Source: a bacterium
Lineage (GTDB): Bacteria > Patescibacteriota > Patescibacteriia > SG8-24
Direction of reading: 5' to 3'
Length of the DNA stretch: 64,000 nt
Assembly: GCA_023246225.1 (NCBI GenBank)
Contig: JAHFIV010000001.1
Coordinates: 46 to 64,045 of the forward strand
Below, one piece after another: positions 7,816-64,000 of the stretch. The first letter of the stretch is position 1; the number at the start of each line of letters is the position of its first letter. The notes beneath the pieces were generated by a model. It worked only from the letters and a program-made list of their open reading frames with translations. It had not been told where the DNA came from and did not search any database. The position numbers and the translations under genes are program-made.

Positions 7816-7915
7816 AGTCAGCTTCTAGCCAATAAAATTTGCGCGTTCGTTAACGAGGAAACGCGAGTGACCACTGTTCCCTTACCATTTTACACCCGTG
7901 TCCCGTGTGGATGGG

Positions 7916-8530
7916 TTAATGTTGCCCGCTGATAACCAACAAATTTTCACTAAAAATAAATAACTCATGCTTCGCACTCTCAATTATTTCGTCTGCACGG
8001 CTTGAATCTTTTTTATTCCTCATATCAAGCATCTTCTCGTGCAACGCAACCATCTTTGGCAACAGATCATCATAATACTGTTTCTGATATTTTTCACCAA
8101 AATATTCCTTGAGAAATAACGGGTTTAATAAGTTTGTTTCATTCCACTGAGAAACAGATGTCATGTACTCCCTCCAAGTTTGATCTAGAGTAGACCTGGT
8201 CTCTCCAGCAACAAAATTTAGATAATATTTTTCTGAAAAATACACTCTACGTTGACCGACTACCGTGAAAGCATTAATAAAATTATACCTATTTTTGGTC
8301 AAGGTACTCAGATTCGTATAACGTTGCTGAATTTCTTGTTGTTTACTTTCAACGTAATAATTACCGATAAAAAGAGTAATCGAAAGCAAAATTAAACTCG
8401 AAAAAAAATTGTATAAATTTTCTTTGGTTGGCAAATTCTTACTATTTCGATTAATCCACTCAGAAAGATTTAATGATTTTCTAATTCGACCATTAATCAT
8501 GAGTGTCCTAATAAAAATTAGGAATCTCAC
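7916..8530 (-). CDS. hypothetical membrane-anchored protein
   Basis: An N-terminal hydrophobic segment. Overlaps the upstream gene by 4 nt (coupled). Confidence 0.45.
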   Translation of the reverse strand: MRFLIFIRTLMINGRIRKSLNLSEWINRNSKNLPTKENLYNFFSSLILLSITLFIGNYYVESKQQEIQQRYTNLSTLTKNRYNFINAFTVVGQRRVYFSEKYYLNFVAGETRSTLDQTWREYMTSVSQWNETNLLNPLFLKEYFGEKYQKQYYDDLLPKMVALHEKMLDMRNKKDSSRADEIIESAKHELFIFSENLLVISGQH

Positions 8531-9537
8531 CTTAACTTGAAACTCGACTTGAATCCCTCGAGATCTGGCTTCGAAGAAGCTCCGTTCGAATATTCAACTG
8601 CCACGAAATATGCATCTCTACCATAAAAGAAAAAAGTTCCTTCAACAGTTTTTTGATTAGAATCAACTGCAAAATCAATGGCTTGATGACCTAAGAAAAA
8701 AGAAAAATTTGAGCTTATTAACTTTGAACCCTTAATCCCATTGACCATTCCATTGACCGAACCTTCAAGTCCCGATTTTACATTATAAGTAGGCGACTTC
8801 TCGTCTATGCCTGGATCATCAAAACTGTAATGCATCACATAATAAATTGAATCGCCTTTATCCGCTTCATAAGTTACATAATTAGTTCCCAACTCCCCCG
8901 GCATCCCCTCACGATGTTCTTGTCTTGTTGGAGCAGTTGGAAAGTCTGCCTCAAAGCCTGAATCTATAGAAGTGTAATGATATCCAAGTTCTTTTTGCGA
9001 TAAATCATTGACCTTATCTGAAGATATTTTTTGGTAATCATGGACCCCAACCATCATCCAGACGAAAACCGCTCCGAGCAAAATAACAAAAATTGCTGTT
9101 ACGATCGCGAAAGTTTTCCAATACTTTTTGTCAGCAACCTTCCTTATTTTCTTTAATTCTTCGTCTGTATGATGGACCGGAAGTTTTTCTGGTGGCGCAA
9201 TTTTTCCAAGAATAATCTTGAGTGGTCTTGTGAGCGCTGGATAAAACCAAAACCAACTAAATGGAGCAAAAAAGACCGACCAAAAAGCTTGCGCCTTGGT
9301 TACGAGTCGGGTCAACTTGATCACCCGCATGCACTCAGTAACAAAAAATACCAATAAACCGAGATACACAAGCGACAGAAGCCCATATATCCCATCGTTG
9401 ATTCGGCCGATCAAACTTTTAATAATTATCAACGAAACAAAAACCGATACAAATAAAAATTGTATATCAATAAGAAGTTTTTGTGCCTCTTTAGTACTCT
9501 TAATATCGGTTGCCGCGAGGTATTCTTCTTTGGTCAT
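8527..9537 (-). CDS. polytopic membrane protein with a C-terminal copy of the novel FEADFP domain
   Basis: N-terminal half has at least 4 TM segments. C-terminal GFEADFPTAP...DLEGFKSSFKLR is homologous to the repeats in 5937..6968. Confidence 0.6.
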   Translation of the reverse strand: MTKEEYLAATDIKSTKEAQKLLIDIQFLFVSVFVSLIIIKSLIGRINDGIYGLLSLVYLGLLVFFVTECMRVIKLTRLVTKAQAFWSVFFAPFSWFWFYPALTRPLKIILGKIAPPEKLPVHHTDEELKKIRKVADKKYWKTFAIVTAIFVILLGAVFVWMMVGVHDYQKISSDKVNDLSQKELGYHYTSIDSGFEADFPTAPTRQEHREGMPGELGTNYVTYEADKGDSIYYVMHYSFDDPGIDEKSPTYNVKSGLEGSVNGMVNGIKGSKLISSNFSFFLGHQAIDFAVDSNQKTVEGTFFFYGRDAYFVAVEYSNGASSKPDLEGFKSSFKLR

Positions 9538-9563
9538 AATTATTTTTAATTTCTACTATGCCG

Positions 9564-11675: not shown

Positions 11676-12000
11676 AAAAAATCCGTGTTGTTGTTTGGAA
11701 AAAGTAAAAACGGGCCACACATCTCACGTCCGTCTTTTGATAAAAATAAAAAGCGACACCCGGTGGTGTCTAGACCCAAGCCAAGCACGGATAGTGCGAG
11801 GTTTGTTTACCGGATGCCGCTTATTGCGCGCTATCCGGAAATAGGCAAAAATTGCCCTGTTTAGCTTGGTTCTAGACGAAGGAAGTATACCGTTAAGTGT
11901 TTAAAAAGGAAAAAACGCCATTTTTTACGAGTACGCGCCACGATGACTTGAAACGTTTTATTTTTTAGGCTAAATTTCTCTATGCAAGAAATGCTCAACT

Positions 12001-12882
12001 ATGACTAACGTTGATGAAGTTCGGACATCAAAAAGGATCCTCAAAATCCTTGCCGAATACGCCGATGGCTCGTCCAGGGTAAAAAATCTGACCGAAGAAC
12101 CTTTCAAATTGACCGCGATACCACCAGACTCCAAGACAACAATTCAAACACACTATTTTTTACCATCCAATGAATTTGATGGTCTAGAATTTTCCGTTAT
12201 TCAACAACGGCTAGGCCTCTCATTTAATGCCCTAAAGGAGGAACTTCTAAATTTTCTCAAGCTTGGTTTCGTACACATTTTTAGAAAAAGTTCGCGTAAT
12301 GATTTTTTAAACAGAATTTTTTCTCAAACGACCACACCGTCTTCTCGGACACTTACTTTAACAAATTGGAATTCGCCACAAAATTATCTCGTTTCAATAA
12401 CCGACGAGGGACGAAAAAATCTCAAAACTATACTTCGTCAACCGAATAAGCAAATACAGACCGAGAAGATAAAAAATGAGGTAACAAAAAAATATGACGT
12501 TGAAGAAGTCTATCGTATTAAGTTTAAGGATTTTAAAAATGTGGAAAAACAATCTTTTTTCCAATACGGTGAAAAAATTGCTCCTCTTCCTAGATACACA
12601 ATCCGAGCCAGAAGCCGTAGCATTCAACGATTGGTTGCGAAATTTCTGTATACGGGAACAAACTTAAAAAAGATTTCCTGTGAATGGGACGAGATCGAAG
12701 AATTTCTAACCGAAAACGGTATAGGACCGGTGGGTGGCGCAAAATCTGAAGGGTGGGGAGAGCACAAAAAAATACAAAAAATGATTCGAGATGCAATCAG
12801 GGCAATAAACAAAAAAACTAAAGAATGTTTTGGATTTAAAATCCTAAAACACTCTCGTGGTTTGATTATCAAATCAAAATAA
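12001..12882 (+). CDS. hypothetical protein (island cargo)
   Basis: A 293-aa ORF that is AT-rich and Lys-rich. Followed by a hairpin with a T-run. Confidence 0.5.
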   Translation: MTNVDEVRTSKRILKILAEYADGSSRVKNLTEEPFKLTAIPPDSKTTIQTHYFLPSNEFDGLEFSVIQQRLGLSFNALKEELLNFLKLGFVHIFRKSSRNDFLNRIFSQTTTPSSRTLTLTNWNSPQNYLVSITDEGRKNLKTILRQPNKQIQTEKIKNEVTKKYDVEEVYRIKFKDFKNVEKQSFFQYGEKIAPLPRYTIRARSRSIQRLVAKFLYTGTNLKKISCEWDEIEEFLTENGIGPVGGAKSEGWGEHKKIQKMIRDAIRAINKKTKECFGFKILKHSRGLIIKSK

Positions 12883-12943
12883 TTATTTCCTAAAAGTGAG
12901 TCACATTTCAAAAAGGTGAGTCACGCTCAGTCACATCCCCAAA

Positions 12944-12976
12944 GAGTAGTCTGCATTACGCAGGCTACTTTTTTAT
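12944..12976 (+). terminator. intrinsic terminator-like hairpin with T-run
   Basis: GAGTAGTCTGCATTACGCAGGCTACT followed by TTTTTTA. Preceded by direct repeats GTGAGTCAC x2. Confidence 0.45.
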
Positions 12977-13139
12977 TTACCCCGCCGAATCTAAAAAGCT
13001 CATCTAACAATATGTCCCCACAAAAATCTTCCCCAAACGCAACAGGACCGCCCGTTAAGGCGATCCTGTACGAAACGCAAGACTCTCTAAAAGCCACGTT
13101 TATAATTTTATTTTAACCTTATTACTTAACTAAAGCAAT

Positions 13140-13514
13140 ATGATCGTAAGCGCCCCAACATACAGCATTTGTCCTACCGGTCGATACAACCTATGTATTA
13201 TTGGCAACCCTGAAGAAATAAAAAATCCATTCGATCCAAACAAAAAACTTATTGAGATTCAATTCGAGGCTAAGTCTGTCGATGGGCAAAAATTCACCGT
13301 GTCTCTCCGGTGCAGTCCAGTGCTGCATCCGAAAGGGCATCTATTGCCTTTGGTGGAGGCTATTCTTGGTCGTCAGCTCACCATTCAAGAGCAGCTTCGT
13401 TTCGATCTCGACTCCATCAATGGCTGTGTTGTGAGTGGAGAGGTCACCCACCAGGCCTCGACTCGAGGAAACGTGTATCCCAAAGTAGGTAATTTCAAAA
13501 AAGCTGCTAGCTAA
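13140..13514 (+). CDS. hypothetical protein
   Basis: A 124-aa ORF immediately upstream of the primase gene. Confidence 0.4.
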   Translation: MIVSAPTYSICPTGRYNLCIIGNPEEIKNPFDPNKKLIEIQFEAKSVDGQKFTVSLRCSPVLHPKGHLLPLVEAILGRQLTIQEQLRFDLDSINGCVVSGEVTHQASTRGNVYPKVGNFKKAAS

Positions 13515-13522
13515 TCGTTCAT

Positions 13523-15820
13523 ATGACGGACAGTACAATACTAGCCGCAGCTCTCGAATACCGAAAAATGGGCTGGAGTGTAATCCCTGTTCGACTTTCT
13601 TTTGAGGAAGGAAGAACAGACAAGGCGCAGAAAAAACCTCTTATTGATTGGAAAGACCACCAAACACGCATCGCGAGCGAAGATGAGTTAAAAACCTGGT
13701 GGAAAAAATGGCCCGAAGCACAGATTGGTGTGGTGACAGGAAAAATTTCTGGACTCGTTGTTCTTGACGTTGACCCAGGTGCAACCATTGAAAAGATCAA
13801 TGAATTACGGATCCCTCCCACTCCGACCGTGAAAACACCGAGAGGCTTTCACTATTACCTGAAATACCCTGGAAGCCCGATGAAAAATGCGACTGATCTT
13901 TTTGGCAGAAATTCTCATATTGACCTTCGTGCTGATGGTGGGTTCGCAGTCATTCCGCCTTCTGTATATCCAGATGGAAGAACGTATGAGTGGGCTATTC
14001 ATCCTGACGCGGAGGATCTTGCCGCGGTGCCTGCCATCTTGCTTCTGAGTCAGGCGAGCGATAAAAATGGAACATTAAAATCCATCGCGAACGGTGTCAC
14101 TGAGGGTTCGCGTAATGATTCGGCAGCGAAATTCATTGGAGCGGTGATTTCACGCGCTCCTCAAGCTGAGTGGAAAAATGTTGGCTGGCAGGAGGCTGTT
14201 CGGTGGAATATGACTAATTCTCCACCACTCCCTAAAGAGGAGTTAGAACAGGTTTTTAGCAGTATCACCGCGCGAGAGGCCGCAAGGATTAAGTTTCCTG
14301 TAGAGGAAACTGAAGAAAATGTTCCATCGAAAGCAAGAAATTCTGAATCAGGAGCGGACAATCTCCTTGGAATCGCCAAAAGGAAAGGTGTTGACCTTTT
14401 CCATAATGAAACAGGAGAACCGTACGCTCGTATCCCTATCCACGACCATTTCGAGATCTGGCCTTGTAAGCACAGTCAGATGCAACGGTGGCTGTCATAT
14501 CTGTTTTATGAAAACACTGGATCCGCACCAAAAACAGATGTATTAACGCAAACCGTCAACATGCTGGAATCCATGGCCTCTTATGATGGAGAAAGGCGCA
14601 AGCTTCATAACCGTGTGGCTTGGTATGAAGGATCCTTTTGGTATGACCTTACGGATGCGGACTGGCGCGTGGTGAGAATAGATGGAAATGGCTGGGAGAT
14701 CGTTGCGGCACCTCCTATATTGTTTCAGCGATACGCGCATCAGCAACCACAGGTCGAGCCACAATCAGGCATGGACACAAAGAAAATTCTGGAGTTCGTA
14801 AACATTACGAATGAAGCTGATCAAATTCTGTTTCTGGTTTTCTTGATCTCCTGTTTCATTTCAGGATTTCCACATCCCATCCTCGTTCCCAATGGACAGC
14901 GCGGGTCGGCAAAGAGCACACTATTCCGACTCATCAGAAAAATTGTTGATCCGTCTATTCCTGAACTTCTGTCGCTTCCAAAAAGACCTGAGGAGCTCGT
15001 ACAACTTCTCTCACATCACTGGTTAGCGCCCTTCGATAATGTGACTGCGATCAATGATGCAACTTCCGACGCTCTTTGTCGCGCGATCACCGGTGATGGG
15101 TTCAGTAAGCGTCGCTTATATTCTGACGATGAGGACGTGATCTATGAATTCCTTCGCTGCCTCGGTCTCAATGCGATCAACAACATGGTCACAAAGCCAG
15201 ACCTTCTCGAGCGCTCGCTTCTCATTAATCTTGAAAGAATTCCAAATGAAAACCGCAGGGAAGAAAAGGTTTTTTGGGATGACTTTGCAAAAGCGAGACC
15301 GATGATCTTGGGTGGTATCTTCGACCTCCTAAGCCGCACCATACCCTTACATGAGTCCTTGGTGCTCAACGAGCTTCCCAGGATGGCTGACTTCACCCGC
15401 TGGGGCTGTGCTATCAGTGAGGCTTTGGGGTACGGCAAGGAGAAATTTCTTGATGCCTACAAACTGAACATCGCTGCACAAACGGAAGAAGCGATCAGGG
15501 AAAACCCAGTGGCAGACGCGCTCGTTCTCTTCATGGAAACACAGAAAGTTGTATGGAACGGTACCGCAAGTGTTTTGTTGGAAAAATTAAAAGAGGTTGC
15601 CGCAGGACAAGGGACAGACATGGATGACCGAGGTTGGCCGAAGGGAGCGAATGTTCTCTCCAAAAAACTGAAAGAACTAAAAACAACGCTCGTGGAAAAG
15701 GGCATACATATGTTCCAAGCAGGAAGAGAAATCACTCTCTATAAAAGTGATCTAAAAATGGACACGGGCGCGAGCGAGAAATCAGAGCCGGAATTCCCCA
15801 CCGAGACCTTTTTCAGGTGA
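13523..15820 (+). CDS. bifunctional DNA primase/polymerase (Prim-Pol N-domain) fused to a phage/plasmid P4-type primase C-terminal P-loop domain
   Basis: N-terminal Prim-Pol motifs: GWSVIPV, LVVLDVDP and FAVIPPSVYPDGRTYEW. Central D5_N-like region. Walker-A-like GQRGSAKST. Confidence 0.8.
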   Translation: MTDSTILAAALEYRKMGWSVIPVRLSFEEGRTDKAQKKPLIDWKDHQTRIASEDELKTWWKKWPEAQIGVVTGKISGLVVLDVDPGATIEKINELRIPPTPTVKTPRGFHYYLKYPGSPMKNATDLFGRNSHIDLRADGGFAVIPPSVYPDGRTYEWAIHPDAEDLAAVPAILLLSQASDKNGTLKSIANGVTEGSRNDSAAKFIGAVISRAPQAEWKNVGWQEAVRWNMTNSPPLPKEELEQVFSSITAREAARIKFPVEETEENVPSKARNSESGADNLLGIAKRKGVDLFHNETGEPYARIPIHDHFEIWPCKHSQMQRWLSYLFYENTGSAPKTDVLTQTVNMLESMASYDGERRKLHNRVAWYEGSFWYDLTDADWRVVRIDGNGWEIVAAPPILFQRYAHQQPQVEPQSGMDTKKILEFVNITNEADQILFLVFLISCFISGFPHPILVPNGQRGSAKSTLFRLIRKIVDPSIPELLSLPKRPEELVQLLSHHWLAPFDNVTAINDATSDALCRAITGDGFSKRRLYSDDEDVIYEFLRCLGLNAINNMVTKPDLLERSLLINLERIPNENRREEKVFWDDFAKARPMILGGIFDLLSRTIPLHESLVLNELPRMADFTRWGCAISEALGYGKEKFLDAYKLNIAAQTEEAIRENPVADALVLFMETQKVVWNGTASVLLEKLKEVAAGQGTDMDDRGWPKGANVLSKKLKELKTTLVEKGIHMFQAGREITLYKSDLKMDTGASEKSEPEFPTETFFR

Positions 15821-16256
15821 AAAAATCTAAAAACGATAGAACGATAGAAACGATCTTTTTATAGCCTTTGAAGATTAAAAGAGGGTTAAGAAGAGGGTAG
15901 TAGAGAGGTATAGAGATAGAAAAATCATCGTTTTGATCGTCCTATCGTCATGGAAAGGTTCTTCCGACTGAAAACTTGATTCAAATCAACCTCCTAAAGT
16001 TGAGTAAGAACTCATTCCAAGGCGAACCTCAGCCAAATAACAAAGATTACAAGATTCATATCTTAGTTTAATAGGTTTAAAACCTATGATTAGGACAACG
16101 CACCGTGCGCGACTAGACAAAAGACTAATTAATTGATTTTTAATCAATTTTAAACCATCAAAATAATCTGTTAAAGTAAGCAACGTTGACCAGAAGCGGT
16201 CAGATGACACCACTTGTTATCACCGCTCTCCAGCCGTTGCACTTTAACAACTTAAT

Positions 16257-16499
16257 ATGACCACCGATTCCACAAAAAATAACGATACGAGTATCCATGA
16301 GTATCTCAATGTGAAAGAGTTTGCTGCCGCTTTAAGACTTTCTGTAACCAGTTGTTACCGTCTTGTGCAACAAAGGCTCATTCCTTTCCATCGCTTACGA
16401 GGAGGACTCAGATTTCATCAAAAGGATGTCGATGCTTACTTCAAAGCATGCCGCGTGGAGTCGGTGACGAGGAAAGATTATGAGTGCAAGAAGGAATAA
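16257..16499 (+). CDS. excisionase/AlpA-like HTH DNA-binding protein
   Basis: An 80-aa ORF with an HTH (LNVKEFAAALRLSVTSCYRLVQQRLIPFHRL). Overlaps the integrase start. Confidence 0.6.
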   Translation: MTTDSTKNNDTSIHEYLNVKEFAAALRLSVTSCYRLVQQRLIPFHRLRGGLRFHQKDVDAYFKACRVESVTRKDYECKKE

Positions 16500-17595
16500 G
16501 AATAGAAATTCTTGGTCGGTCGATTTCCAAATCGATGGAATTCGTTACCGTCAACGAAGCCCTGAGAATACCGGGGCCGGTGCTAAGGCATACGAAGCCG
16601 TATTGCGACAAAGATTGGCGCGGGGTGAATCGATTCATGCGAAACCAGCACCAGTTGCTCAGGAGGTGAAGACCTTCGAAGTCTTTTGTAAGGAGTGGTT
16701 CAATACGTACGTGCTCACGAACAGCTCACCAAAAGAACGAGTGCGCAAAGAGTCTGCCCTGCGGGTGCACATCATTCCATTCTTTGGGGCTCGAAAACTC
16801 ACAATGATCACTAATCGCGCCATAGAAGAGTTCAAGGCTTCCCTCCAAAAGCAGGGTCTCGCACCGAACAGTGTAAATAACACCCTAAATGTTCTTACGC
16901 GATGTCTGCGGTCAGCAGTTGAATGGGGTGAGCTTGGTGTGCTGCCAAACGTCAAAAGAATGAAGGTCCCTCCTACTAAATTTGATTTTCTCTCCCCCGA
17001 AGAGACCGATCGACTCTTTGCTGCAACAAAAAAAGATATGCCTTGGCATCTCATGCTCATGATCGCCGCAAGAACAGGTATGAGATTCGGAGAAATTATT
17101 GTACTGGAGTGGGGAGATGTTGATTTTGAGCGGCGAACAATCACCATTCAACGCTCTCTTAGTAATCGAGTAATCACTGCACCAAAGAACAACAAAAAAA
17201 GATTTGTACCTATCGCTCCAGACCTCTTTCCCGTCTTGTGGGAGTATCGGCAACAGAGTGGGTTGGTACTCCCTGGACCACAGGGCGACTACTTAACTCA
17301 TTCAATGGGGAGAACGGCGCTCGAGAAGTATCGACGGAATGCGGCGATAAGAAAGATCGGGTGGCACACGCTTCGCCATTCCTTCGCGTCACAATTAGTC
17401 TCCAGAGGAGTTTCATTGCGGATTGTCCAGGAACTTCTTGGACATTCAGATATGCGGGTTACACTTCGTTATGCGCACCTCGCACCCTCTAGCCTGAGAC
17501 AAGCGATCAATCTCCTGACGTTGCCCGAGGTAGAAGAAGAAATGTCTACCGGCTGTCAACGCAACATCCTTGAAGACAAAAAATCATTACAATAG
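16480..17595 (+). CDS. tyrosine-type site-specific integrase
   Basis: C-terminal catalytic region HTLRHSFASQLVSRGVSLRIVQELLGHSDMRVTLRYAHL, covering the R...HxxR...Y motif arrangement. N-terminal SAM-like domain. Confidence 0.9.
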   Translation: MSARRNKNRNSWSVDFQIDGIRYRQRSPENTGAGAKAYEAVLRQRLARGESIHAKPAPVAQEVKTFEVFCKEWFNTYVLTNSSPKERVRKESALRVHIIPFFGARKLTMITNRAIEEFKASLQKQGLAPNSVNNTLNVLTRCLRSAVEWGELGVLPNVKRMKVPPTKFDFLSPEETDRLFAATKKDMPWHLMLMIAARTGMRFGEIIVLEWGDVDFERRTITIQRSLSNRVITAPKNNKKRFVPIAPDLFPVLWEYRQQSGLVLPGPQGDYLTHSMGRTALEKYRRNAAIRKIGWHTLRHSFASQLVSRGVSLRIVQELLGHSDMRVTLRYAHLAPSSLRQAINLLTLPEVEEEMSTGCQRNILEDKKSLQ

Positions 17596-17660
17596 CACCT
17601 CCTCTCACCGCCAGTTTCTTGCAAAAATAAGGCTAAAAATGTAGTATGGCGATACAACGT

Positions 17661-17748
17661 GGAGGGGTGGCCGAGAGGTTTAAGGCAACAGTCTTGAAAA
17701 CTGTCGTTCTGAAAGGAACCGTGAGTTCGAATCTCACCCCCTCCGCCA
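17661..17748 (+). tRNA. tRNA-Ser(TGA): tRNA-Ser (anticodon TGA)
   Basis: Manually folded cloverleaf: acceptor stem GGAGGGG/CCCCTCC, anticodon loop CTTGAAA, long variable arm, T-loop GTTCGAATC, discriminator G, encoded CCA. 88 nt. Confidence 0.85.
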
Positions 17749-17775
17749 CGACAATTTCTTATCGGTGTCATCCTT

Positions 17776-26967: not shown

Positions 26968-27250
26968 TTTGTCATTCCAGCTTCCTTCTATTGTCATTCC
27001 GGACCCCTCTTCTTGTCATTCCGGCCTCCGAGCCGGAATCCATGCGAACAAAATAACCAAACAAATTTTGTTTGATCTTTTTTTACGTTCTGGATTCCGG
27101 GTCACGGCCCGGAATGACAAAAAAGAAGGGTCGGAATGACAAAAGAATGATGGCGGAATCCAGAATAAAAAAAGGCCAAACGAAAATTGTTTGGCTTTAC
27201 GGTTCTGGGTCCTGAATCCCCCGGACCTGATCCGGGGTCAGGATGACAAT
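26968..27250. repeat. MITE-like palindromic repeat cluster R1 (TGTCATTCCGG family)
   Basis: Three 22-nt tandem units starting TGTCATTCC, then hairpin modules (CCGGCCTCCGAGCCGG; CCAAAC-N-GTTTGG with a T-run; TTCTGGATTCCGGGTCACGGCCCGGAATGACAA). Shared with loci R2-R5. Confidence 0.8.
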
Positions 27251-27622: not shown

Positions 27623-27654
27623 TTTTCCTCATTTCTCCAGAACATTCTGGGGTT

Positions 27655-27816
27655 GGGACCTCTGGAAAAGTATATTCCGAAGCTGAAAACGAGGGATTTT
27701 TTCCGATCCGTATCGGGGACACGCCACAAACGATATGGAGTATCGTTGAGGACGCGGCACTGATACGGGCGGAAAAAATAACCGTTTTCTGCCGGAAGAG
27801 ACTTTTTCAGCGGTCC
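27655..27816. ncRNA. conserved ~163-nt structured intergenic element, copy E1
   Basis: About 80% identical to 61931..62093, with compensatory changes in three stems. Bounded by GGGACC...GGTCC. Confidence 0.45.
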
Positions 27817-27927
27817 AGATACTTATACCTGATCCATAAGTATTTGCAACACCGCGCCTTATGCGCGCCGTTCTCAATACCAGATAGAAACAACATATGC
27901 TAAAATCTACACTTAGAACCTTCCCCT

Positions 27928-32418: not shown

Positions 32419-32496
32419 ACGTTTGAACTATGGATCCCGGATCGGCCGTCGCCGCGCGACGCCCGCCCGGGATGACGCGCGCAAAGGAAATGCGCG

Positions 32497-32964: not shown

Positions 32965-33888
32965 TCATCCGAAGCGCACCGTGCGATTAAGCTCCATTAT
33001 CGCTGCGAATTCGTCCTTATTCAGCGCCGGTTCACGCTTTTTTTCGAGCTCGGCGATAACATCGAGAATCGGCTTACCTTCGAGACCACCACGAAGCATG
33101 GAGAGGTAGAGTTTGTTCACCTCGCTGTCCTGCCACGCTTTTATCCCCTGCGTTTTTATTTCGAAACCAAGATCATCGAGCAAATCGATCTTATCTTTAA
33201 TCTTGAGCGTGGCTTCGCGAGGATCTTTAGAGAGTCTACGAAAATCTTTGAGCGTGAGTGCGCGGAGTTCTTCGACTGGACCGGTTAGTCGCGGAGTAAA
33301 TTTTACGTCGGAGATCGTTTGCGCTGGTGGTGTTACTGTTGGCGCGGCTGCCGGTGTCGCGCGGGGCACGGGCGCGCTTGCTACTGGTTTCGGCGCAACA
33401 GGTTGCGGTTCATTTTTTGCGATCGGAGCAACAGGTAAATTCGGTGGTGCTGGTGCTTTTTCTTGCGGGGCAGCGGGTGACGTTACTGCGATAACGCGCG
33501 GTTCTGCAGGCGGCGTTTCTGATAGCGATTTTTGTGGCGTGGTTTGTGCAGCGCCACTTACTTTCGTCACCAATTTTGCAAACGCGCTATCGTTCGCTGC
33601 TTTTTCTTTTTGTTGCTGCTCGTCGGCTTCGTTCATCATCTTCGCTGTACGCACTGCGACATACTCCGCTTTTTCATTTGCGACACGACGCACATCTTTT
33701 GCGTGATACGCCGCATTTTTTTCTTTAAAAACCACCATCGCTTTCTCGGCGTCTGCGTCACTCACCCCCATTCCCCCACTTGCGATCGGCATAGTAAGTT
33801 TCGACGTCGTTTCCAGGACGTCACGGAGATCGCGAAAATACATCGACACAAGCATACGAAAGCGACGCCGCTCATCATCATCTTTCAC
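32965..33888 (-). CDS. hypothetical protein with long Pro/Ala-rich linker (T4SS-like cluster)
   Basis: A 307-aa ORF. The annotated start is GTG, overlapping the upstream stop by 1 nt; an alternative ATG lies 11 codons downstream. Confidence 0.5.
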   Translation of the reverse strand: MKDDDERRRFRMLVSMYFRDLRDVLETTSKLTMPIASGGMGVSDADAEKAMVVFKEKNAAYHAKDVRRVANEKAEYVAVRTAKMMNEADEQQQKEKAANDSAFAKLVTKVSGAAQTTPQKSLSETPPAEPRVIAVTSPAAPQEKAPAPPNLPVAPIAKNEPQPVAPKPVASAPVPRATPAAAPTVTPPAQTISDVKFTPRLTGPVEELRALTLKDFRRLSKDPREATLKIKDKIDLLDDLGFEIKTQGIKAWQDSEVNKLYLSMLRGGLEGKPILDVIAELEKKREPALNKDEFAAIMELNRTVRFG

Positions 33889-35126
33889 TACGATTCCAGA
33901 TGCGGCGATCGCTTCGTCTGCGGCGGTATCGTATGGGGTTGCTGATGGGACGATTTTTTTTCTGGATTCCGGCTCGGGGGCAGGAATGACAGAAGATAGA
34001 GGGGTAGGGGTGATTGAAGAAGTGGATGGCGGAATGACAACGGTTTTGGTCCTGGTGCGGGGGCAGGAATAACAGATGGAGGTGTTACGGGTTTTGGTGG
34101 TGGTACGGCTTTTTTTTCTGGATTCCGGCTCGGAGGCCGGAATGACATGTTCCGGGTCAAGCCTGGAATGACAAGAGAAGTGGTAGCCGGAATGACAGAA
34201 GTGACAGACGGAACGACAGGAGCAGGAGAGGCTGGGATGACAGAAGAAAGAGCAGGCAGAGTGACAGGAGATGGGGGCGTTGCTGGTTGCGGTGGTTTTG
34301 GTGGTGGTACAACCACTGGTTTTTTCACTTCTTCTTTTACGATTCTGGATTCCGGCTCGGAGGCCGGAATGACAATAGACGAAGGGGTTGGCGAGGCTGC
34401 GAGGCTTACTTTTCGCCCAAATCGGCCGGCGAGTTCCTTGGTTTTCTGCAGGAACCTCTCTTTTGTTTGGCGCTCTCGCTCTTCTCGCTCCTTTGCATTT
34501 TTTATCGCTTCCTCTTTGAGCGCAGGTAACTTTGGAGCGGCTTCGTGCAGTAACGCGATAACCGCAGCGCTCTGTTCGGGAGAAAATTCAGACCCCCCGG
34601 TTTTCACCGGCTTCTCAAGCATCTCCTTCGTTGCATTTTCATCATGAATACCTTTCAACTGTGCGGTCACGATCGTCTCAAACCGACGACGCAGCACGTG
34701 ATCACTCGGCGCGTATCCGCTTTTCTCCACAATCCCCCGTGCCATCACCTCGATCGGATCGACCGCGGGAGGTAGCGGCGGAAGAAATTCATCAGCGTGC
34801 AGATCTTTGTAAATCTTTTGCTGCTCTTCAAGAAGCTCTGTAGCATCAGCGAGCACATCAGCGAACGCATCACCTTGCACATCGAGCGCTTTTTCAAAAG
34901 GTATCCCTGCGTTGTCCTCAAGCCAGCTCGCAAGATCATCATCAGAAATTTTTCCGAGCGCAATCATGCGCACACCGCTCAAAAATTCGTTTGTCTGTAC
35001 GGGAGTGAGCTCGTGTCGCACCGCGATCTCGTCAAATTTTTTCTGTCGCTCAGACGCAGCGAAAAAGGTCTCCAGCTCCGGGAGTACCCACTCGTCCTCC
35101 TTGAACGTGAAGACCGGTTCGGTCAT
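33888..35126 (-). CDS. hypothetical acidic protein whose C-terminal ~140 aa are encoded by palindromic repeat cluster R2
   Basis: Continuous ORF. Residues after about 245 read VIPASEPES / SFRPPSRNPEKK, the translation of GTCATTCCGGCCTCCGAGCCGGAATCC-type repeats. Confidence 0.5.
   Translation of the reverse strand: MTEPVFTFKEDEWVLPELETFFAASERQKKFDEIAVRHELTPVQTNEFLSGVRMIALGKISDDDLASWLEDNAGIPFEKALDVQGDAFADVLADATELLEEQQKIYKDLHADEFLPPLPPAVDPIEVMARGIVEKSGYAPSDHVLRRRFETIVTAQLKGIHDENATKEMLEKPVKTGGSEFSPEQSAAVIALLHEAAPKLPALKEEAIKNAKEREERERQTKERFLQKTKELAGRFGRKVSLAASPTPSSIVIPASEPESRIVKEEVKKPVVVPPPKPPQPATPPSPVTLPALSSVIPASPAPVVPSVTSVIPATTSLVIPGLTRNMSFRPPSRNPEKKAVPPPKPVTPPSVIPAPAPGPKPLSFRHPLLQSPLPLYLLSFLPPSRNPEKKSSHQQPHTIPPQTKRSPHLES
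33958..34376. repeat. MITE-like palindromic repeat cluster R2, located inside a reading frame
   Basis: At least four TTCTGGATTCCGGCTCGGAGGCCGGAATGACA-type units within the 33888..35126 ORF. Confidence 0.8.
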
Positions 35127-35141
35127 AAAATACTACGGACC

Positions 35142-37787
35142 TCATTCTATCGAGTTTTTTATTTCAGCAATTTGTGCTGCCAGCTCTCCAATCTGCTTTT
35201 CCATTGTAGCATCCAGCGCGCTCGAATTCTTCATCGCGGTAATTTTTCTGAGATTATTTTTTAATACTTTGAGTTTTGCTATGGCTTGCTCTGAAAGCGT
35301 GCCGGAAGGACCACTTTCAAGAGTATCGATCGCTGTTAATGTTTTGTTGGCACCCTTACGAGCTGCTGCAAACTTTTCATCGGGCGATAGCGGCGCCATC
35401 GATCTTCCAAATTCATTTTCAGCATTACCAAAGCTGGTCCTTCCGCGTTCGATTGCTTTATTCATCGCATTACGTTCCGCTGGTGAGAGATTGCCTCGCT
35501 GAATAGCTTGTGCTAAACCCTCCGCTGCAGAAGCAAGACGATTCGCTGCGGCGATAGGACTCGTTGCAGACTGTACCGCAGCTAGCTCTTCGGCGATCTT
35601 GCCGGTTCCATCTCCACCCATGTCCGCATATTGTTTTGCAAGATCTGCCGCTTGTTTTTTAACGGTATCAAGATCAACGCCGGCACTAGCGCCACCAGAA
35701 TCTTCCTCATGCGCACGTGCTAATTGCTCCGTGTCCGCAAGAAGTTTTGTGGCGTTGGGATCTTTTGCCAACATTTTTTCATTGCGTTCTTGATCGACCG
35801 TTGCCCGCTCAATAGGGTTGGTCGCCACTCTATTTAACTCATCAATCTTCTTCTCGTTCTCAACACCTCCTGCCTCTTCAAGCATCTTAAGAATTTTTTG
35901 TTGATCCTTATCTGAATATTTCTCAAATTGATTCGCGTCAATATTTTTCAGGTATGTACTCTGAAATTCTCCTTTCCTTTCAAGCGCGGCGAGTTGTTTT
36001 TCTGGTCCAGCCCTCCGGAACCAACTTGCCGCCTTGTCGGCATTTTCAAATGCCGCGTCCTGATTTCCGCCCGCAGCGAGCGCTTTGTCAAATTGCTTCA
36101 CCGTATCTTTATCTTTTTCAGTATAGGCAAGAATTGGCTTGCCCTCCTCATCCTTTTTTACATTTCCGTTTTCATCTTTCACCTCAACCCGAACAATACC
36201 CATAACGTCTTTGAGAAGTTTTGCCTTGCCTTCTGGCCCAAGATTTTTCATTGAATCCGCACCTCGTTCAGCGTTCACAAGCATCGCTGCTTGGCGGTCA
36301 ACTTTTGAAGCTTTCTCGTCGCGTATGGTCTTCTCGTTCTCTTGCGTACTCTTGGTGTTTTCCTTCGCCTTTTCGGCAGCCAACCTATCAACCGCAGCCC
36401 GACGCTTTGCAGGGTCCGAAATATTAGCAATGTCACGCTTCTTTTCACGCGCTTCGGTAAATTTTTTGTCCATTCCTATAAATCTTCCAAACCCGGATTC
36501 CGTGAGCTTTTGTTTGTAGCCACGACCCATCGAAGCGAGACTTTGACGTTCGCCTGTCACTGGATCTTTTGCGCTAAGTATTCCCGCATTCGCTGCAGCA
36601 CCGCCCGCGAACTTCCCGAGACTCACTGCTCCTCTTTTGAGTTTCTGTGCGACTTTCTGTGCCATGCCTCCGCTTTCCGCGGCCATTTGCGATGACATTT
36701 TATATCCTGCCGCGAGCAAGACGATCATCACAATGAAACTTTTCACTTGATTGAAATCGCCAAATTGCGTGACGCCTGCGCTGAATGTTTCTGCCGCGCT
36801 TTGCGATGAGGTGAACCCGCTATCTAACTGATTTCCTGAAGCGACAAGGAGCGCGAGCCAAAGCACAAACGCCATGATCGGACCGAAGACGACTTGCCCG
36901 GTAAATTTTTTCCACCACTCTGCGTAGTATCCTGACGCAGCTTTTGTCGGCACCGCGCGAAGAAAAAACGCGAGTGGTGAGAGCACGATCAGCAGCCACA
37001 GAGTGACGATGCGTGCGATCAGTGAAAGCGACAGGACGATCAAAATTCCGCACGATACCGCAAGCGCGATCACTGCGAGTACGGAGGATATAACGATGCC
37101 GAGTGAAAACTTGAGGGGGTCAGATTCACCTATCGCTTTAAGCGTATCTTTGAGTGCAGATGCTGACGGCGAAAGAAGTTGAGTAAGATGCAAACCGTTC
37201 GCAAAGTTTCCACCTGCCGCTTCTTTGAAACCGTAGACGAACGTGAGCATCACCACCTGACCGAAGTCGATCAGCACTCCGCAGATCGTTCTCGTGAAGT
37301 TCACGAGCACCGCCATGATCAGCAGGCTCGAAAGGTTTTTATTTTTATAGCTGTACTGATCGACGCCGAGCATCGTGCCGAATGCGATGAGTAGCAGCAC
37401 CAAAATAAAAAACATGTTGGTGACATCGCGCACGATCGTCCAACCGTTCGTGACCACGGCTGCGTTCACGAAGTCGTTATACTGCGCAACGCTCACGAGA
37501 ATGCTCACGAGTCCGAGCATTAGTTGCCCAAGTACCATCACGATCACTTGGAGGATGTTCGCTATCAGGAGGAGGACGAAGCTGCCCATGAAGTTTCCTC
37601 CTGCAGCTGCTGCTCCGGACTTTACAGCGGCGTAGCCCGCCGCAGCAACAACAACCGGACCAAGAGCCTGTACCGGCCGTGCAGCAATAAACAAGAAAAC
37701 AAAAGAAAAACACGCGCACACGACATGCCGTCTGTTATCGCTTATCCAGCGAAAAAATTTTGCGGACTTTTCCCTCAAAAAAGGCAT
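35142..37787 (-). CDS. VirB6/TrbL-like polytopic membrane protein with ~500-aa charged coiled-coil C-terminal extension
   Basis: N-terminal signal. At least 7 TM segments in the first ~380 aa. Lies between the giant surface protein and the VirB3/VirB4 genes. No certain sequence signature. Confidence 0.5.
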   Translation of the reverse strand: MPFLREKSAKFFRWISDNRRHVVCACFSFVFLFIAARPVQALGPVVVAAAGYAAVKSGAAAAGGNFMGSFVLLLIANILQVIVMVLGQLMLGLVSILVSVAQYNDFVNAAVVTNGWTIVRDVTNMFFILVLLLIAFGTMLGVDQYSYKNKNLSSLLIMAVLVNFTRTICGVLIDFGQVVMLTFVYGFKEAAGGNFANGLHLTQLLSPSASALKDTLKAIGESDPLKFSLGIVISSVLAVIALAVSCGILIVLSLSLIARIVTLWLLIVLSPLAFFLRAVPTKAASGYYAEWWKKFTGQVVFGPIMAFVLWLALLVASGNQLDSGFTSSQSAAETFSAGVTQFGDFNQVKSFIVMIVLLAAGYKMSSQMAAESGGMAQKVAQKLKRGAVSLGKFAGGAAANAGILSAKDPVTGERQSLASMGRGYKQKLTESGFGRFIGMDKKFTEAREKKRDIANISDPAKRRAAVDRLAAEKAKENTKSTQENEKTIRDEKASKVDRQAAMLVNAERGADSMKNLGPEGKAKLLKDVMGIVRVEVKDENGNVKKDEEGKPILAYTEKDKDTVKQFDKALAAGGNQDAAFENADKAASWFRRAGPEKQLAALERKGEFQSTYLKNIDANQFEKYSDKDQQKILKMLEEAGGVENEKKIDELNRVATNPIERATVDQERNEKMLAKDPNATKLLADTEQLARAHEEDSGGASAGVDLDTVKKQAADLAKQYADMGGDGTGKIAEELAAVQSATSPIAAANRLASAAEGLAQAIQRGNLSPAERNAMNKAIERGRTSFGNAENEFGRSMAPLSPDEKFAAARKGANKTLTAIDTLESGPSGTLSEQAIAKLKVLKNNLRKITAMKNSSALDATMEKQIGELAAQIAEIKNSIE

Positions 37788-37868: not shown

Positions 37869-38087
37869 TGTCATTCCGGCCTCCGAGCCGGAATCCAGAA
37901 AAATTAAAAAGACCAAACGGAAATCGTTTGGCTTTACGGTTCTGGATTCCGGGTCACGGCCCGGAATGACAATAAAGGAGGCCGGAATGAAAGAGGGGTG
38001 GCTGGGTTCCACTCAACAAAAAGACCAAACGATTTCCGTTTGGTCTTTTTTACGTTTCTGGATTCCGGGTCAAGCCCGGAATGACAA
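37869..38087. repeat. MITE-like palindromic repeat cluster R3 (two adjacent elements) between the giant gene and the VirB6-like gene
   Basis: Starts TGTCATTCCGGCC and ends CCCGGAATGACAA. Contains two AAAAAGACCAAACG-N5-CGTTTGG-T-run bidirectional terminator-like hairpins. Confidence 0.8.
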
Positions 38088-38099
38088 AGCGAGAAAAAC

Positions 38100-41000
38100 C
38101 TATGGCAGTGGGGGGTACACCTCGATCGTTCCTGCGAAACTTGTCCAGGGGTTAGTCTTGTCGGGCGGAATCTGCACGCATTCATCCGCAGCACCGGTGT
38201 TGTTCATGCAAAGATTACCGAGGCCTCCGTTTCCAGGACATGTTCCGTTACACGTCTGCCAGTTATCCATAATCTGCACGCGTGGTTTAAACACACAGGC
38301 GGTGTGTGCATTGTTCACGCAATCGGTAACGATACCTTTGCTCTTGTCGCACTCCTGTTTATCAGCGATGAGTTTGGCAAGTTTTTCCTTACTGCACGTA
38401 TACGTATGCGTCTCCTCAAAAAACTCGCTCTGGCACTGTTTTCCACCACCCCATCCGAGCGCAGGATCATCACAAATCTTCTTACTGCTCCCCCCACCAA
38501 GGTTGATGCTGCCACGGCGGTTCTTGTACCAACCGGTCAACTCAAGAATTTCCAAATTATCACCCCAATCAACGATCTTATGCCGAATTGGCATGTGATC
38601 TCTATCGGCATACGCGTAGTACGTGAGCGTTGCTTTTAACTTACCGCTGTGCGACGCAACCGGCACCGCAGCCATAATTTTATTCACCGTGAGACCCGCT
38701 GGTCCTTCCTGACAATTCCTACTCCCGAAACAGAAACTGTAATCAACGGCAACTACCTTCGGTGCGTTGTGTTCCGTCGCATATCTCTCACGGAAATCCC
38801 AACCGCCGTCACCACCAAGCGCGCGCGCCGTCACGTCAACTTTTGCCAGATCGCCGTTTGCCAAACGGTACGCATCGTAGGACCAACGCGGCTCGTAATC
38901 GGCGCCGCGAGGAACAGTGACGGAAGGATCGGAGGGATTATTCCATAAAGGAGACCCTTGTCGCCACTCATACACATTAAACGCAGCGGCAAAGTACTGA
39001 CTGAGGTGCAACGCGCCGAGTGCGCGCGCGCCGAAACCTGCATTCCTCCACCCTGCATCTGGCGCACCCTTCCCTTTATCGCTGCCGCAATCACCGATGC
39101 ACGCGTATGGCGTCCCTGAAGCTGTAGATCCCGCGTTGAATATGAACTGCCTCTCATTCGGCTTATCTTTTTTCGGTCGAACGTCCACATGCGTGAACAC
39201 ACTGCCTCCCTCCGAGTCGTACACCGGCAAAATTCGGTTCCACACCTTGTTGATCTTCTCATCATCAGGAGCAGCAGGATTGAGACTAAACAAAATGCGA
39301 CCATTCTTTGGATCTGGTGAAAAATCTTCGATCGGTTGGGCGATCGCGCCGTAGGGAATCATTGGAAGCTGGGTCACTCCCACTGCGTTGTGTTGTTGTA
39401 TGTCCGTACCTGCGTTAGAGAATCGATCAGACTTATGATCTTTTTGATACGGCGGCGCGTCAAGATACGCATTCGCGAGCCGATCGGTCCATGCATAATT
39501 TTTAAAATCACTATCGAGCCCACGCGAAACATCGTTCACAAACGCGATCTCTTGGCACCAATCGCGAAGTTCGACATACACCGTTGCGAGGGTATTGGGG
39601 CAATAATCCTTGCTCCCGATAGCCTCTATGGCCTTGAGGAGAGCAGCGCCGATACAAGCCGTGGGATTAAAAAATGGATTAGGAGCAAGAGGAGTGGGCG
39701 GGGTACAGACGCCACCTACGAACGCCTCTGAAAGCTGGGCGCAATGTACTTCATTATTACAACTCACCGTCGCAAACCCTGCGAGCTTACGGTCAACAAA
39801 GTGCGCCCTAATACCGAGCACTGCAAGGTTCATGCAACCACCATCTGCCAACGGCTCGTCGATATCTGTTGTATGAGAATCATTCACCCCCAGCCCCGCA
39901 AATGGACAACTCGTTGAGGCAATAATTTCATGGTTACCTTTGATACTCTCGTCAAAATATTGACCGTTGTCTGGCCCTGGTTCACCTGAAGATTTATTTG
40001 GATAACGGATACAAATGGTCCACTGATTCTTTTCCGTAAGATAGAAATCGAATTTTCTTCCTGAGGCAACCGTACTCTTAAAGTATCCGGCATTTCCAAA
40101 AACATGGATACCGGCGATCTCATCCTCAAACAGATCTCTCTGCGGAAATTTATAAAGATTAGGCTTTGGAGGTGGCGTCGTGTGTACTGGGTACGGTATC
40201 CACTTCGCGTTTACCTTTCCATCATCCAAACCAAGAAGATCCCCAATACCAATTTTACACCCCACAGCTGCATAACATTCATTACTCCACCACCCCCAAC
40301 CGGGCAACCGAGGCACATCGGCCGGTATCGAACCGATCTGATCTTCAATTTTCATTGAATAACTAAGTATCCCAGGTGTACCAACGCGAGTACCTTGCGC
40401 AACCTGGCAATACAAAAGGTTGCCGGAGTTGACATACCCTGCCTCTTCGTTTTGGTTACCGAGGTCGCTCCCTCCGGAGAGCTGATCTTGAGGGAGCCAC
40501 AAGTTGCACGTATGCCGATCGGGGTTTGCGTTCACAAACCGACCAAAATCAGGATCGAGACAGAACCCGTACCAGCCCTTCGCTGTCACGTCTTTTGTCC
40601 AGCGCGAACACACGCCACCCTCGCTACTTACACATGGATCTGTTGCAGCATCCGTTGGCACTGGCCTTGCGCTCGGCACGCAAGTTTTCCCATCATTCGG
40701 TCCACCAACGCATACTCCTTTGTCCTCACCATGAATCCCCGGTGCAAGACGCGGATCGTGCAGCGAAACGTAGCGGACGGTAGTGCCGTTCACGCCATAC
40801 CCAAGCTTGCGATATGAACAATCACACGCATTTTCTTTGGTGCAGATGTTTGCGTTACCAAATCCCGACTTAATTTCCTTCGGAAGGCCGGTGTCATTAT
40901 CATACTTCACCACCACGCTCGGCGGGAAAGGCGCGTCATCTTCAGGATACCCTCGGCAAGAGGGTGCGTTAATGAAGTCGCTACGAAGCGGTCCGCCTTT

Positions 41001-52245: not shown

Positions 52246-52320
52246 AGGTTGAGAGGTTTAGAGGTGTAAAGGTTAAGAGGTTTAGAGGGCCGGATCTTTT
52301 AACCTTACACCTCTAAACCT
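52246..52320. promoter_or_regulatory. ~75-nt imperfect inverted repeat with tandem GAGGTTTAGAG units between prfB and the epimerase gene
   Basis: GAGGTTTAGAGGTGTAAAGGTTAAG pairs with CTTTTAACCTTACACCTCTAAACCTC. No T-run. Confidence 0.4.
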
Positions 52321-52329
52321 CTACACCTT

Positions 52330-53814: not shown

Positions 53815-53960
53815 TGTCATTCCGGCCCGCCTTTTTGTCATTCCAGCCTCCTCTTCTTGTCATTCCGGGCCGTGACCCGGAATCCAGAACCGTAAAGCCA
53901 AACGATTTCCGTTTGGCCTTTTTATTTTTCTGGATTCCGGCTCGGAGGCCGGAATGACAA
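53815..53960. repeat. MITE-like palindromic repeat cluster R4
   Basis: Three 22-nt TGTCATTCC units, then CGGGCCGTGACCCGGAATCCAGAA, a CCAAACG-N5-CGTTTGG hairpin, and TTCTGGATTCCGGCTCGGAGGCCGGAATGACAA. Confidence 0.8.
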
Positions 53961-53965
53961 AATAA

Positions 53966-53996
53966 TGAAAAAGAGGCCCGTGCAGGGCCTCAAAAA
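53966..53996 (-). terminator. intrinsic terminator after the small-paralog/groEL transcription unit
   Basis: GAGGCCC-GTGCA-GGGCCTC stem followed by a T-run on the minus strand. Confidence 0.55.
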
Positions 53997-53997
53997 T

Positions 53998-54345
53998 TCA
54001 ATCGTCAGGGCCGCAATTGCCCATGTGTCGTCCGAGCATCACCATCGCGTTGTGATCTCTTGTGGCTTGCTCGCGCGTGGCGATCAGCACCTCGCGCATC
54101 TCAGCGATAATCAACCTCATCATCGCCGGTCTCGGACGCGAAACGCCGAGCGCATAACGTGCAAATGACGTTCCTCCGACCTCGGTCTTTTCCACGAGCA
54201 TGCTCATGAAACGCTCGCCACGACCGAGCAGCATCGCCTGCATGAGTGCGGATCGCACCAACTCATCGAATGGTGGGCTCGCGCCGTCCCAATCTTTCAT
54301 GTGAACGATCAGCATGTTGAAGTTGCACTCCACGTTTCTTTCCAT
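53998..54345 (-). CDS. small putative HTH protein, paralog C of a tandem trio
   Basis: Shares the N-terminal KDWDGASPPFDELVRSAL motif and an ALGVS HTH-like segment with 54364..54657. Confidence 0.5.
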   Translation of the reverse strand: MERNVECNFNMLIVHMKDWDGASPPFDELVRSALMQAMLLGRGERFMSMLVEKTEVGGTSFARYALGVSRPRPAMMRLIIAEMREVLIATREQATRDHNAMVMLGRHMGNCGPDD

Positions 54346-61898: not shown

Positions 61899-61930
61899 AA
61901 GTTGTTCTTACGATTTAATTGTCCTCCTAA

Positions 61931-62093
61931 GGAACCTCTGAGAAACTATATTCCGAAGCGGGAAACGAGATATTTTTTCTGTCCCGCTTTGATGACGCGC
62001 CACAGACGATGCAGAGCATCGTCGAGGACGCGGCGTCGAAGTGGGCGGGAAAAATAGCCGTTTCTCGCCGGAAGAGAGTTTTGAGGAGGTTCC
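61931..62093. ncRNA. conserved ~163-nt structured intergenic element, copy E2
   Basis: Aligns with 27655..27816. Bounded by GGAACC...GGTTCC. About 35 nt upstream of the nusA start on the minus strand. Confidence 0.45.
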
Positions 62094-62208
62094 TAAATGG
62101 CTGCCTTTTCGATTTTAAGGCAGAAAAAAGACCAGTTTCATTCAGAAACTAGTCATTAACCGAAGTATACATGACAGTGGTCGCTTTGGCAAGGCCACGT
62201 CGGTCGTG

Positions 62209-63710: not shown

Positions 63711-63915
63711 TGTCATTCCGGCCCCATCTCTGTCATTCCTCTCTTCTGTTGTCATTCCGGGCCGTAACCCGGTCCTTTTCCTTGTCATTCCGGGCCGTGA
63801 CCCGGAATCCACGTAACAAAGTAACCAAACAGTTTTTGTTTGGTCTTTTTTTACGTTCTGGATTCCGGCTCGGGGGCCGGAATGACATGTTCCGGCTCGG
63901 AGGCCGGAATGACAA
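63711..63915. repeat. MITE-like palindromic repeat cluster R5
   Basis: Four tandem TGTCATTCC units, CGGGCCGTGACCCGGAATCC, a CCAAACAG-N-TGTTTGG hairpin with a T-run, and a TTCTGGATTCCGGCTCGGGGGCCGGAATGACA terminal palindrome. Confidence 0.8.
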
Positions 63916-64000
63916 AAGAGGAGGTGTAAAACGACAAAGGAGGGGTCGCGCAAAGGTTTTATTTCACGTACACGAGTCCGTAATGATACGGCCCCGGCGT

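Follow-up and report, generated by a model that had tools for sequence, protein, structure and literature searches.

Palindromic clusters in a type IV secretion-like region

The locus at 37869-38087 lies between a giant gene and a VirB6-like gene, in a region whose genes encode PrgI-like, TraC-like, VirB4-like and VirB6-like proteins, a T4SS pilin and a 3280-aa Cys-rich protein. It is one of five clusters of palindromic sequence in the window (the whole 64-kb stretch of DNA that was analysed, to which all positions refer unless a contig is named). Exact-protein matches place the window in a species that is also represented by the NCBI MAG GCA_023246215.1 and by several assemblies from ENA and Logan. 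To judge by its gene content the host is probably a bacterium of the candidate phyla radiation (CPR, or Patescibacteria), and the MAG record suggests that it comes from groundwater.

The basic unit of the clusters is an oriented hairpin of ~32 nt, with the window consensus TGTCATTCCGGCCTCCGAGCCGGAATCCAG and two main loop types, CCTCCGAG and GCCGTGAC. Two inverted hairpins, one per loop type, flank a module consisting of an A run, CCAAACG-N5-CGTTTGG and a T run (the T module), or a variant of it, and form with it a doublet of ~105 nt. Half-sites, which are tandem 21-22-nt sequences made of TGTCATTCCRGCC and then a pyrimidine-rich tail, adjoin these units. A preliminary description had given the elements 13-nt terminal inverted repeats; the actual arms are ~32 nt long and each of them is a hairpin. 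That description had otherwise recognised a composite family with shared modules at five loci, and all of the modules indeed lie where it had placed them, but it had missed a divergent hairpin inside the window; a further cluster lies to the left of the window. The sites are as follows.

Cluster 1, 26968-27250: downstream of the copper ATPase operon, with a small minus-strand ORF on either side
26970 and 26992: 22-nt half-sites
27014-27119, plus strand: canonical doublet, copy 1 (hairpin with loop CCTCCGAG, T module, inverted hairpin with loop GTCACGGC; -33.1 kcal/mol, z = -8.3)
27014-27045, plus strand: full hairpin, F type 1
27050-27084 and 27166-27197: T modules
27088-27119, minus strand: full hairpin, type 2
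27120-27141, minus strand: half-site
27152-27165: 3' fragment GGCGGAATCCAGAA
27203-27250, minus strand: variant hairpin GTCATCCTGA...CCCAGAA
32419-32496, minus strand: sixth, divergent site, GTCATCCCGG-(inner hairpin)-CCGGGATCCAT, in the PrgI-like/TraC-like intergenic region
Cluster 2, 33958-34376, minus strand: inside a coding sequence; hairpins at 33960-33991, 34116-34147, 34150-34175 (partial) and 34343-34374, with several half-sites
Cluster 3, 37869-38087: flanked by the giant gene (3280 aa) and the VirB6-like gene
37869-37971, plus strand: doublet (hairpin 37869-37900, plus; T module 37906-37935; hairpin 37940-37971, minus)
~37973-37992: degenerate half-site
38018-38051: T module
38056-38086, minus strand: hairpin
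Cluster 4, 53815-53960: between a trio of small paralogs and the DUF4870/MamF_MmsF gene; 22-nt half-sites at 53815 and 53836
53858-53960, minus strand: doublet (type 2 hairpin 53858-53889, plus; T module 53894-53927; type 1 hairpin 53928-53959, minus)
Cluster 5, 63711-63916: half-sites at 63711 and 63731; variant hairpin 63750-63782
63783-63887, minus strand: doublet (hairpin, plus; T module 63816-63852; hairpin, minus)
63890-63916, minus strand: overlapping partial hairpin
Contig L142, 8573-8702: further cluster, left of the window and ~2.6 kb from it

We found the core of the hairpin, TGTCATTCCGG-N8-CCGGAATCCAGAA, in 12 full and four partial copies in the window, all of them confined to the five clusters. 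Pattern searches of the window for ATTCCGG-N8-CCGGAAT, allowing at most one mismatch, returned 12 matches against 0.02 expected, none of them outside the five loci, and TGTCATTCC was found 24 times against 0.53 expected, again at the five loci only. A covariance model built from 24 copies of the hairpin and run unfiltered on the window recovered the 12 full copies at 46-57 bits and four partial or variant ones at 16-30 bits, with nothing elsewhere. The hairpin is strongly polar, since this model scores the correct strand at ~50 bits and the opposite strand at ~10. All of the full copies (12 of 12) read TGTCATTCCGG-N7-8-CCGGAATCCA(G/T/C), that is, they carry oriented, conserved 5' GTCAT(TCC) and 3' (GGA)ATC-YRG boxes. 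In the stem 94% of cells are paired, four of the eight pairs show two-sided changes and no shuffle equals the observed score; whole-stem swaps, from CCGG/CCGG to CTGAA/TTCAG, are found in relatives. This pattern of substitution indicates that the hairpin is under selection.

The ~105-nt doublets occur in both orientations at ~80-96% identity and have distinct left and right arms, the doublets of clusters 3 and 4 being 96% identical reverse complements. Each is predicted, as single-stranded DNA, to form one long hairpin with a folding energy of -33 to -41 kcal/mol (z = -8 to -11). CCAAACG-N5-CGTTTGG, which had been described as a module common to the family, is present in its exact form, with A and T runs, in clusters 3 and 4 only (three copies) and in variant forms (CCAAACA..TGTTTGA, CCAAACG..TGTTTGG and CCAAACA..TGTTTGG) in clusters 1 and 5, but cluster 2 has no T module. 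The half-site tandems comprise just two or three copies with a period of 21-27 nt, so we rejected a CRISPR array, which requires regular repeat-spacer periodicity with unique spacers and which the preliminary description had likewise not seen. That description had placed the clusters between convergent or co-directional genes; the four intergenic clusters are each flanked by co-directional minus-strand genes, follow minus-strand genes and are never between convergent ones.

In ~19 kb of extra flanking sequence we found just one further cluster, the one on L142. This makes six clusters and one divergent site in ~83 kb, or about one cluster per 14 kb, which extrapolates to several dozen copies in the whole genome. 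The repeat also affects annotation: the predicted ATGs of a 142-aa and a 135-aa ORF (26973-26975 and 53839-53841) fall within GGAATGACA half-sites, and in the gene call of another assembly the DUF4870 gene starts 21 nt further downstream. The repeat is a supplier of spurious start codons (GGAATGACA) and spurious ORFs.

Relation to the Neisseria Transformation Sequence

The Neisseria Transformation Sequence (NTS), CGTCATTCCCGCGMAVGCGGGAATCYRG, was described by Chenal et al. in 2025 as an extension of the classical dRS3 repeat; SsnA, a GIY-YIG nuclease of 94 aa, binds and cuts it solely in single-stranded form and on just one of the strands, and Ssn-related motifs (SRM) are known from many phyla (PMC11893778). 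The flanks of the window hairpin, with 5' box GTCATTCC and 3' box GGAATC-CAG, are identical to those of NTS (CGTCATTCCCGCG...GCGGGAATCYRG), and seven of the eight stem pairs are the same, one base pair being flipped. The window hairpin differs from NTS in that its stem is CCGG and not CCCGCG, the ninth pair is absent and the loop is 6 nt long. The flipped pair, the missing pair and the 6-nt loop are the reason why the published SRM pattern, HGTCWYN(0-2)YYVSBRHN(0-5)WNVSBRGN(0-2)RNCYNB, hand-built from 29 genomes (PMC11893778), matched none of the repeat copies in the window when applied literally. The mismatch is limited to two loop-proximal positions, R and W: once these were changed to N, the pattern recovered all 12 full copies (13 matches against 0.9 expected).

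The likeness extends to organisation: as with NTS/SRM, the window has a ~30-nt oriented hairpin that is multi-copy, clustered, mostly intergenic and distributed over many phyla. Unlike NTS/SRM, however, the window copies are paired around a terminator-like module with half-site arrays beside them, the sequence searched here holds no Ssn gene, and the host is a probable CPR bacterium.

We scanned one genome per species (596 Gb) for exact matches to GTCATTCCGG-N8-CCGGAATCCAG, which has 21 specified bases, and obtained at least 115 genome stretches from at least 10 phyla, against ~0.3 expected. Among the matches listed are Dehalococcoidia, Methylococcaceae, Chromatiaceae, Prevotella, Elusimicrobia, Desulfobacterota, Spirochaetia, Nitrospirae, Fibrobacter, Pirellulaceae and several Patescibacteria; the motif also occurs in 12 viral contigs, whose contexts are uninformative. 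The preliminary description had reasoned that a mobile-element interpretation would weaken if the clusters were unique to the window and absent elsewhere in the genome; the family is present beyond the window. Similarity between the window and the loci from other phyla is confined to the 30-35-nt hairpin. Doublets of inverted hairpins are found again in Prevotella, Methylococcaceae, Gottesmanbacteria and others, there with lineage-specific spacers, and in one metagenome contig (L132) a doublet combines one canonical NTS arm with one CCGG-type arm. A metagenome scan for the lineage-specific composite of hairpin and T module gave seven matches and no close relatives. By all-against-all ORF clustering of 115 loci among the matches listed we found no recurrent gene family beside the motif; the ORF clusters around it were just repeat-derived pseudo-ORFs and housekeeping genes.

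The near-identity with NTS, together with the wide cross-phylum occurrence, indicates that the window hairpin is, on sequence grounds, a stem variant of the known and very widespread NTS/SRM class. This extends the class to a genome that is probably of the candidate phyla radiation and adds a stem variant missed by the published pattern. As that pattern misses the CCGG stem, current censuses of the family probably undercount it.

Remodelling between relatives and the coding cluster

In strains 98.6-100% identical to the window the five clusters are present and unchanged in all contigs, without any empty site. More distant relatives were reached via two homologues of a 720-aa protein whose gene lies in the window, one on L145 (~93% nucleotide identity) and one on L146 (55% protein identity). 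In the intergenic region between the giant gene and the VirB6-like gene, L145 has a rebuilt cluster that includes a GTCATCCTGAA...TTCAGGACCCAGAA hairpin; the repeat is absent from the same region of L146, which has a GC-rich hairpin with a short T tract, and the downstream promoter-like box is conserved. Between the PrgI-like and TraC-like genes both relatives carry full hairpin-T-hairpin doublets where the window has the divergent hairpin at 32419-32496. Between relatives, site positions appear conserved and site content variable, as in Neisseria NIME arrays and not as in cut-and-paste insertion.

In NIMEs, dRS3 inverted repeats flank RS elements, and syntenic arrays vary in repeat number and composition (PMC1797815). 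The window clusters resemble them in being arrays of 20-30-nt palindromes with 20-200-nt spacer modules, syntenic yet variable between relatives and situated beside surface or secretion genes. They differ in that the literal dRS3 sequence, ATTCCC-N8-GGGAAT, is absent (the copies here being ATTCCGG-N8-CCGGAAT), in that the arrays are short (146-420 nt) and show no phage or recombinase link, and in that the spacer is mostly one conserved terminator-like hairpin, as opposed to more than 100 RS families.

We also noted that nucleotide identity with L145 falls sharply, to 42-63%, at 35100-36600 and 38100-40300. The drops affect the VirB6-like gene in its 3' half and the giant gene at its 3' end, and suggest recombined mosaic alleles of surface or secretion proteins. 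The independent metagenome contigs L122, L125 and L127 end within repeat clusters (at window positions 27112, 27730, 33977 and 34003), which shows that the assembly risk raised in the preliminary description is real and that the clusters fragment metagenome assemblies.

Cluster 2 lies inside a coding sequence, as had been described. Its host gene (32965-35126, minus strand) belongs to the type IV secretion-like cluster and forms one uninterrupted 720-aa ORF in each of four other assemblies, among them L123 (4802-6964), L126 and L124. The window lacks one nucleotide of an A-run in this gene (A5 to A4 at ~34043), a deletion that may be a strain variant or an assembly error and that breaks the frame into ORFs of 412 and 307 aa. 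The cluster encodes a Pro-rich linker of ~155 residues (VIPASEPESR, VIPA..., SFRPPSRNPEKK) between two well-conserved domains, and all of its repeats are forward on the coding (minus) strand. A hairpin in forward orientation is free of stops in all three frames (VIPASEPESR, SFRPPSRNPE and CHSGLRAGIQ), and one in reverse orientation has a TGA in one frame. The flanking domains are conserved in both homologues; the linker is rearranged in one of them (P0002) and lacks the modules in the other (P0003). These comparisons of predicted proteins show that forward hairpins have been absorbed into a hypervariable coding linker. A literature search for the repeat-derived peptides (IPAFAGMT and similar) gave no match.

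Rickettsia palindromic elements (RPE) are inserted in frame within protein genes. As with RPE, a palindromic repeat in a coding sequence is here read through without stops and adds a peptide segment between conserved domains. The two are unrelated in sequence, however, and here several hairpins and half-sites make up a ~155-aa Pro-rich linker that varies between close relatives. Cluster 2 is a clean example of NTS-type hairpins turned into a hypervariable protein linker.

Candidate mechanisms of spread

We lean towards the explanation that the elements are mosaic clusters of a ~32-nt oriented hairpin of the NTS/SRM class, spread by a hairpin-specific enzyme and by recombination; their organisation is best described as REPIN-like doublets in NIME/BIME-like mosaics. 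The hairpins would be non-autonomous and would be recognised as single strands during replication, transformation or conjugation, the single-stranded hairpin (TGTCATTCCGGCCTCCGAGCCGGAATCCAGAA) being the proposed substrate of the candidate enzyme. Like a REPIN, the ~105-nt doublet can extrude into a single long hairpin. The recogniser would be encoded elsewhere in the genome, and its best precedent is the small Ssn-type GIY-YIG nuclease specific for single-stranded DNA, a single-domain protein of the cd10448 type whose gene is often flanked by the motif. Such an enzyme, together with recombination or gene conversion between copies and not cut-and-paste transposition, may have spread and remodelled the family, and the embedded T module may serve as an extra intrinsic terminator.

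We found no GIY-YIG or Ssn-like ORF in the window (64 kb), its flanking contigs (~19 kb) or ~140 other motif loci: a tblastn probe validated against Pfam GIY-YIG gave no match, and a GIY-YIG pattern search in six-frame translations of the window and 115 listed loci returned UvrC only. By our own rough estimate an ssnA gene would adjoin just a few percent of the copies. With no such gene in ~83 kb of this genome or at the ~140 loci, we can only infer the partner enzyme. The presence of an Ssn-type nuclease would suggest that bacteria which depend on DNA uptake also control the single-stranded DNA that enters them. It is also conceivable, although rather doubtful, that the CCGG-stem hairpins form a sub-class of NTS, with exact 21-base identity across at least 10 phyla including ultra-small CPR, which is served by something other than Ssn, such as an unrecognised hairpin-specific enzyme or an inter-phylum vector. 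In DNA-scavenging CPR cells this sub-class might be a self/non-self mark on incoming single-stranded DNA, and here it would be, in addition, the building block of terminator-carrying doublets and of a fast-evolving secretion-protein linker.

Chenal et al. drew a parallel between Ssn/NTS and RAYT/REP (PMC11893778), and the elements could be REP/REPIN doublets that owe their spread to a RAYT, a domesticated tyrosine (HUH) transposase of the IS200/IS605 type with a single gene in the genome. Inverted hairpin doublets that fold into one long hairpin, intergenic positions at 3' gene ends, BIME-like mosaic clusters and a presumed single-strand, hairpin-specific enzyme are common to both. We nevertheless consider this origin unlikely: no Y1 transposase or RAYT is present among the 30 window ORFs scanned, and the enzyme shown to act on NTS, from which the motif hardly differs, is a GIY-YIG nuclease. 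Moreover, REPs typically carry a GTAG box and are lineage-specific, whereas the conserved 5' box here is GTCAT and the hairpin is shared across phyla.

The clusters might instead be recombination sites, either targets of a site-specific recombinase (IS110/Piv-type), as when filamentous phages integrate into Neisseria dRS3, or patches of homology through which surface and secretion genes are exchanged. Phage integration at dRS3 is documented, and allele exchange has been linked to NIME arrays (PMC1797815). Here the clusters are found within and next to the block of type IV secretion-like genes and the giant surface-type gene, their arrays have been rebuilt between relatives, and neighbouring genes show the sharp mosaic drops in identity to the ~93% relative. 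None of the clusters, however, has a recombinase or a prophage junction, and the divergent blocks do not consistently abut clusters, so that we regard recombination sites as an improbable primary explanation. It is compatible with the favoured spread by enzyme and recombination and does not exclude the NTS/SRM reading.

The elements had first been called MITE-like, a label that did not hold. As classical MITEs they would be deletion derivatives of an IS, mobilised in trans by a DDE transposase via terminal inverted repeats, and the ~105-nt units have indeed long inverted ends with distinct ~32-nt arms, both orientations and ~80-96% identity; the most distant relative, L146, lacks the repeat at one syntenic site, and an IS256/Mutator-family transposase is encoded in the window. 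We rejected this gene (2376-3425, the sole transposase of the window) as the mobiliser because the IS256 copy terminates in sequences unrelated to GTCATTCC. A search for target-site duplications found none at any unit or cluster; the 12-nt flanks of one cluster out of the five have a 5-mer in common. Occupied and empty sites differ just with respect to the ~93% and 55% relatives, the 98.6-100% identical strains being occupied throughout, although a different TIR element of ~170 nt is polymorphic among those strains. Sharing across phyla that is limited to the 32-nt hairpin, with unrelated spacers, would be unexpected for a single IS family. A MITE origin thus seems hardly likely.

The element that is polymorphic is ~165-175 nt long and unrelated to the hairpin family, with terminal inverted repeats GGGACCTCTGCAAAAGT / ACTTTTGCAGAGGTCCC. 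It is found at 27652-27819 and 61927-62101 of the window and at ~7905-8075 of L137, and is absent from L120 at the first site and from L139 and L141 at the second. This is true presence/absence polymorphism, which makes it a better MITE candidate than the hairpin family.

A purely regulatory role, in which immobile host terminators, insulators or sites for a DNA-binding protein (with iteron-like half-sites) were selected in place, is very unlikely in our view. The terminator-like modules noted in the preliminary description are there, as A-run/hairpin/T-run modules in four clusters; they fit the intrinsic-terminator consensus and two of them score on the gene strand. Every intergenic cluster follows minus-strand genes, and the half-site period of 21-22 nt is about two helical turns. 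However, terminator-like sites show no overall enrichment in the region (15 against 16.3 expected), and the T module is found solely within these elements, in orientations independent of gene direction. Cluster 4, moreover, is directly downstream of a separate hairpin and T-run (53969-53999), cluster 2 is translated, and the hairpin is shared by at least 10 phyla, in which its neighbours are unrelated. The elements have no Rfam match, an Rfam search giving only a tRNA. A terminator role for the T module, weakened by its restriction to the elements, by its orientation and by the separate hairpin and T-run at cluster 4, is therefore plausible but would be secondary. We also rejected the T module as a DNA-uptake sequence, because it is bound to the elements and far too sparse.

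Several other features of the neighbourhood were noted. An 8-nt tandem, AGGTTTAG (5.4 copies, 52246-52288), is followed by its inverse, AACCTCTA (3.6 copies, 52301-52328), just upstream of a release-factor gene. A low-GC block at 8000-17750 (37-42% GC), with a primase-polymerase gene at 13523-15820 and an adjoining tRNA-Ser at 17661-17748, looks like an integrated element. A 122-nt direct repeat (343-464 and 840-961, 90% identical) is common to two neighbouring small ORFs. To the left of the window, at a distance of ~60 nt to 1.1 kb and near a T4SS pilin gene, L142 encodes a 337-aa reverse transcriptase (RVT_1; 6021-7034), which could be part of a diversity-generating retroelement, a retron or a group II intron. 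To the right of the window end, L137 carries at 7885-8824 a third palindromic family, ACGTGG...CCACGT hairpins around tRNA-like sequences, in a region where L137 and L139 differ in length by 115 nt.
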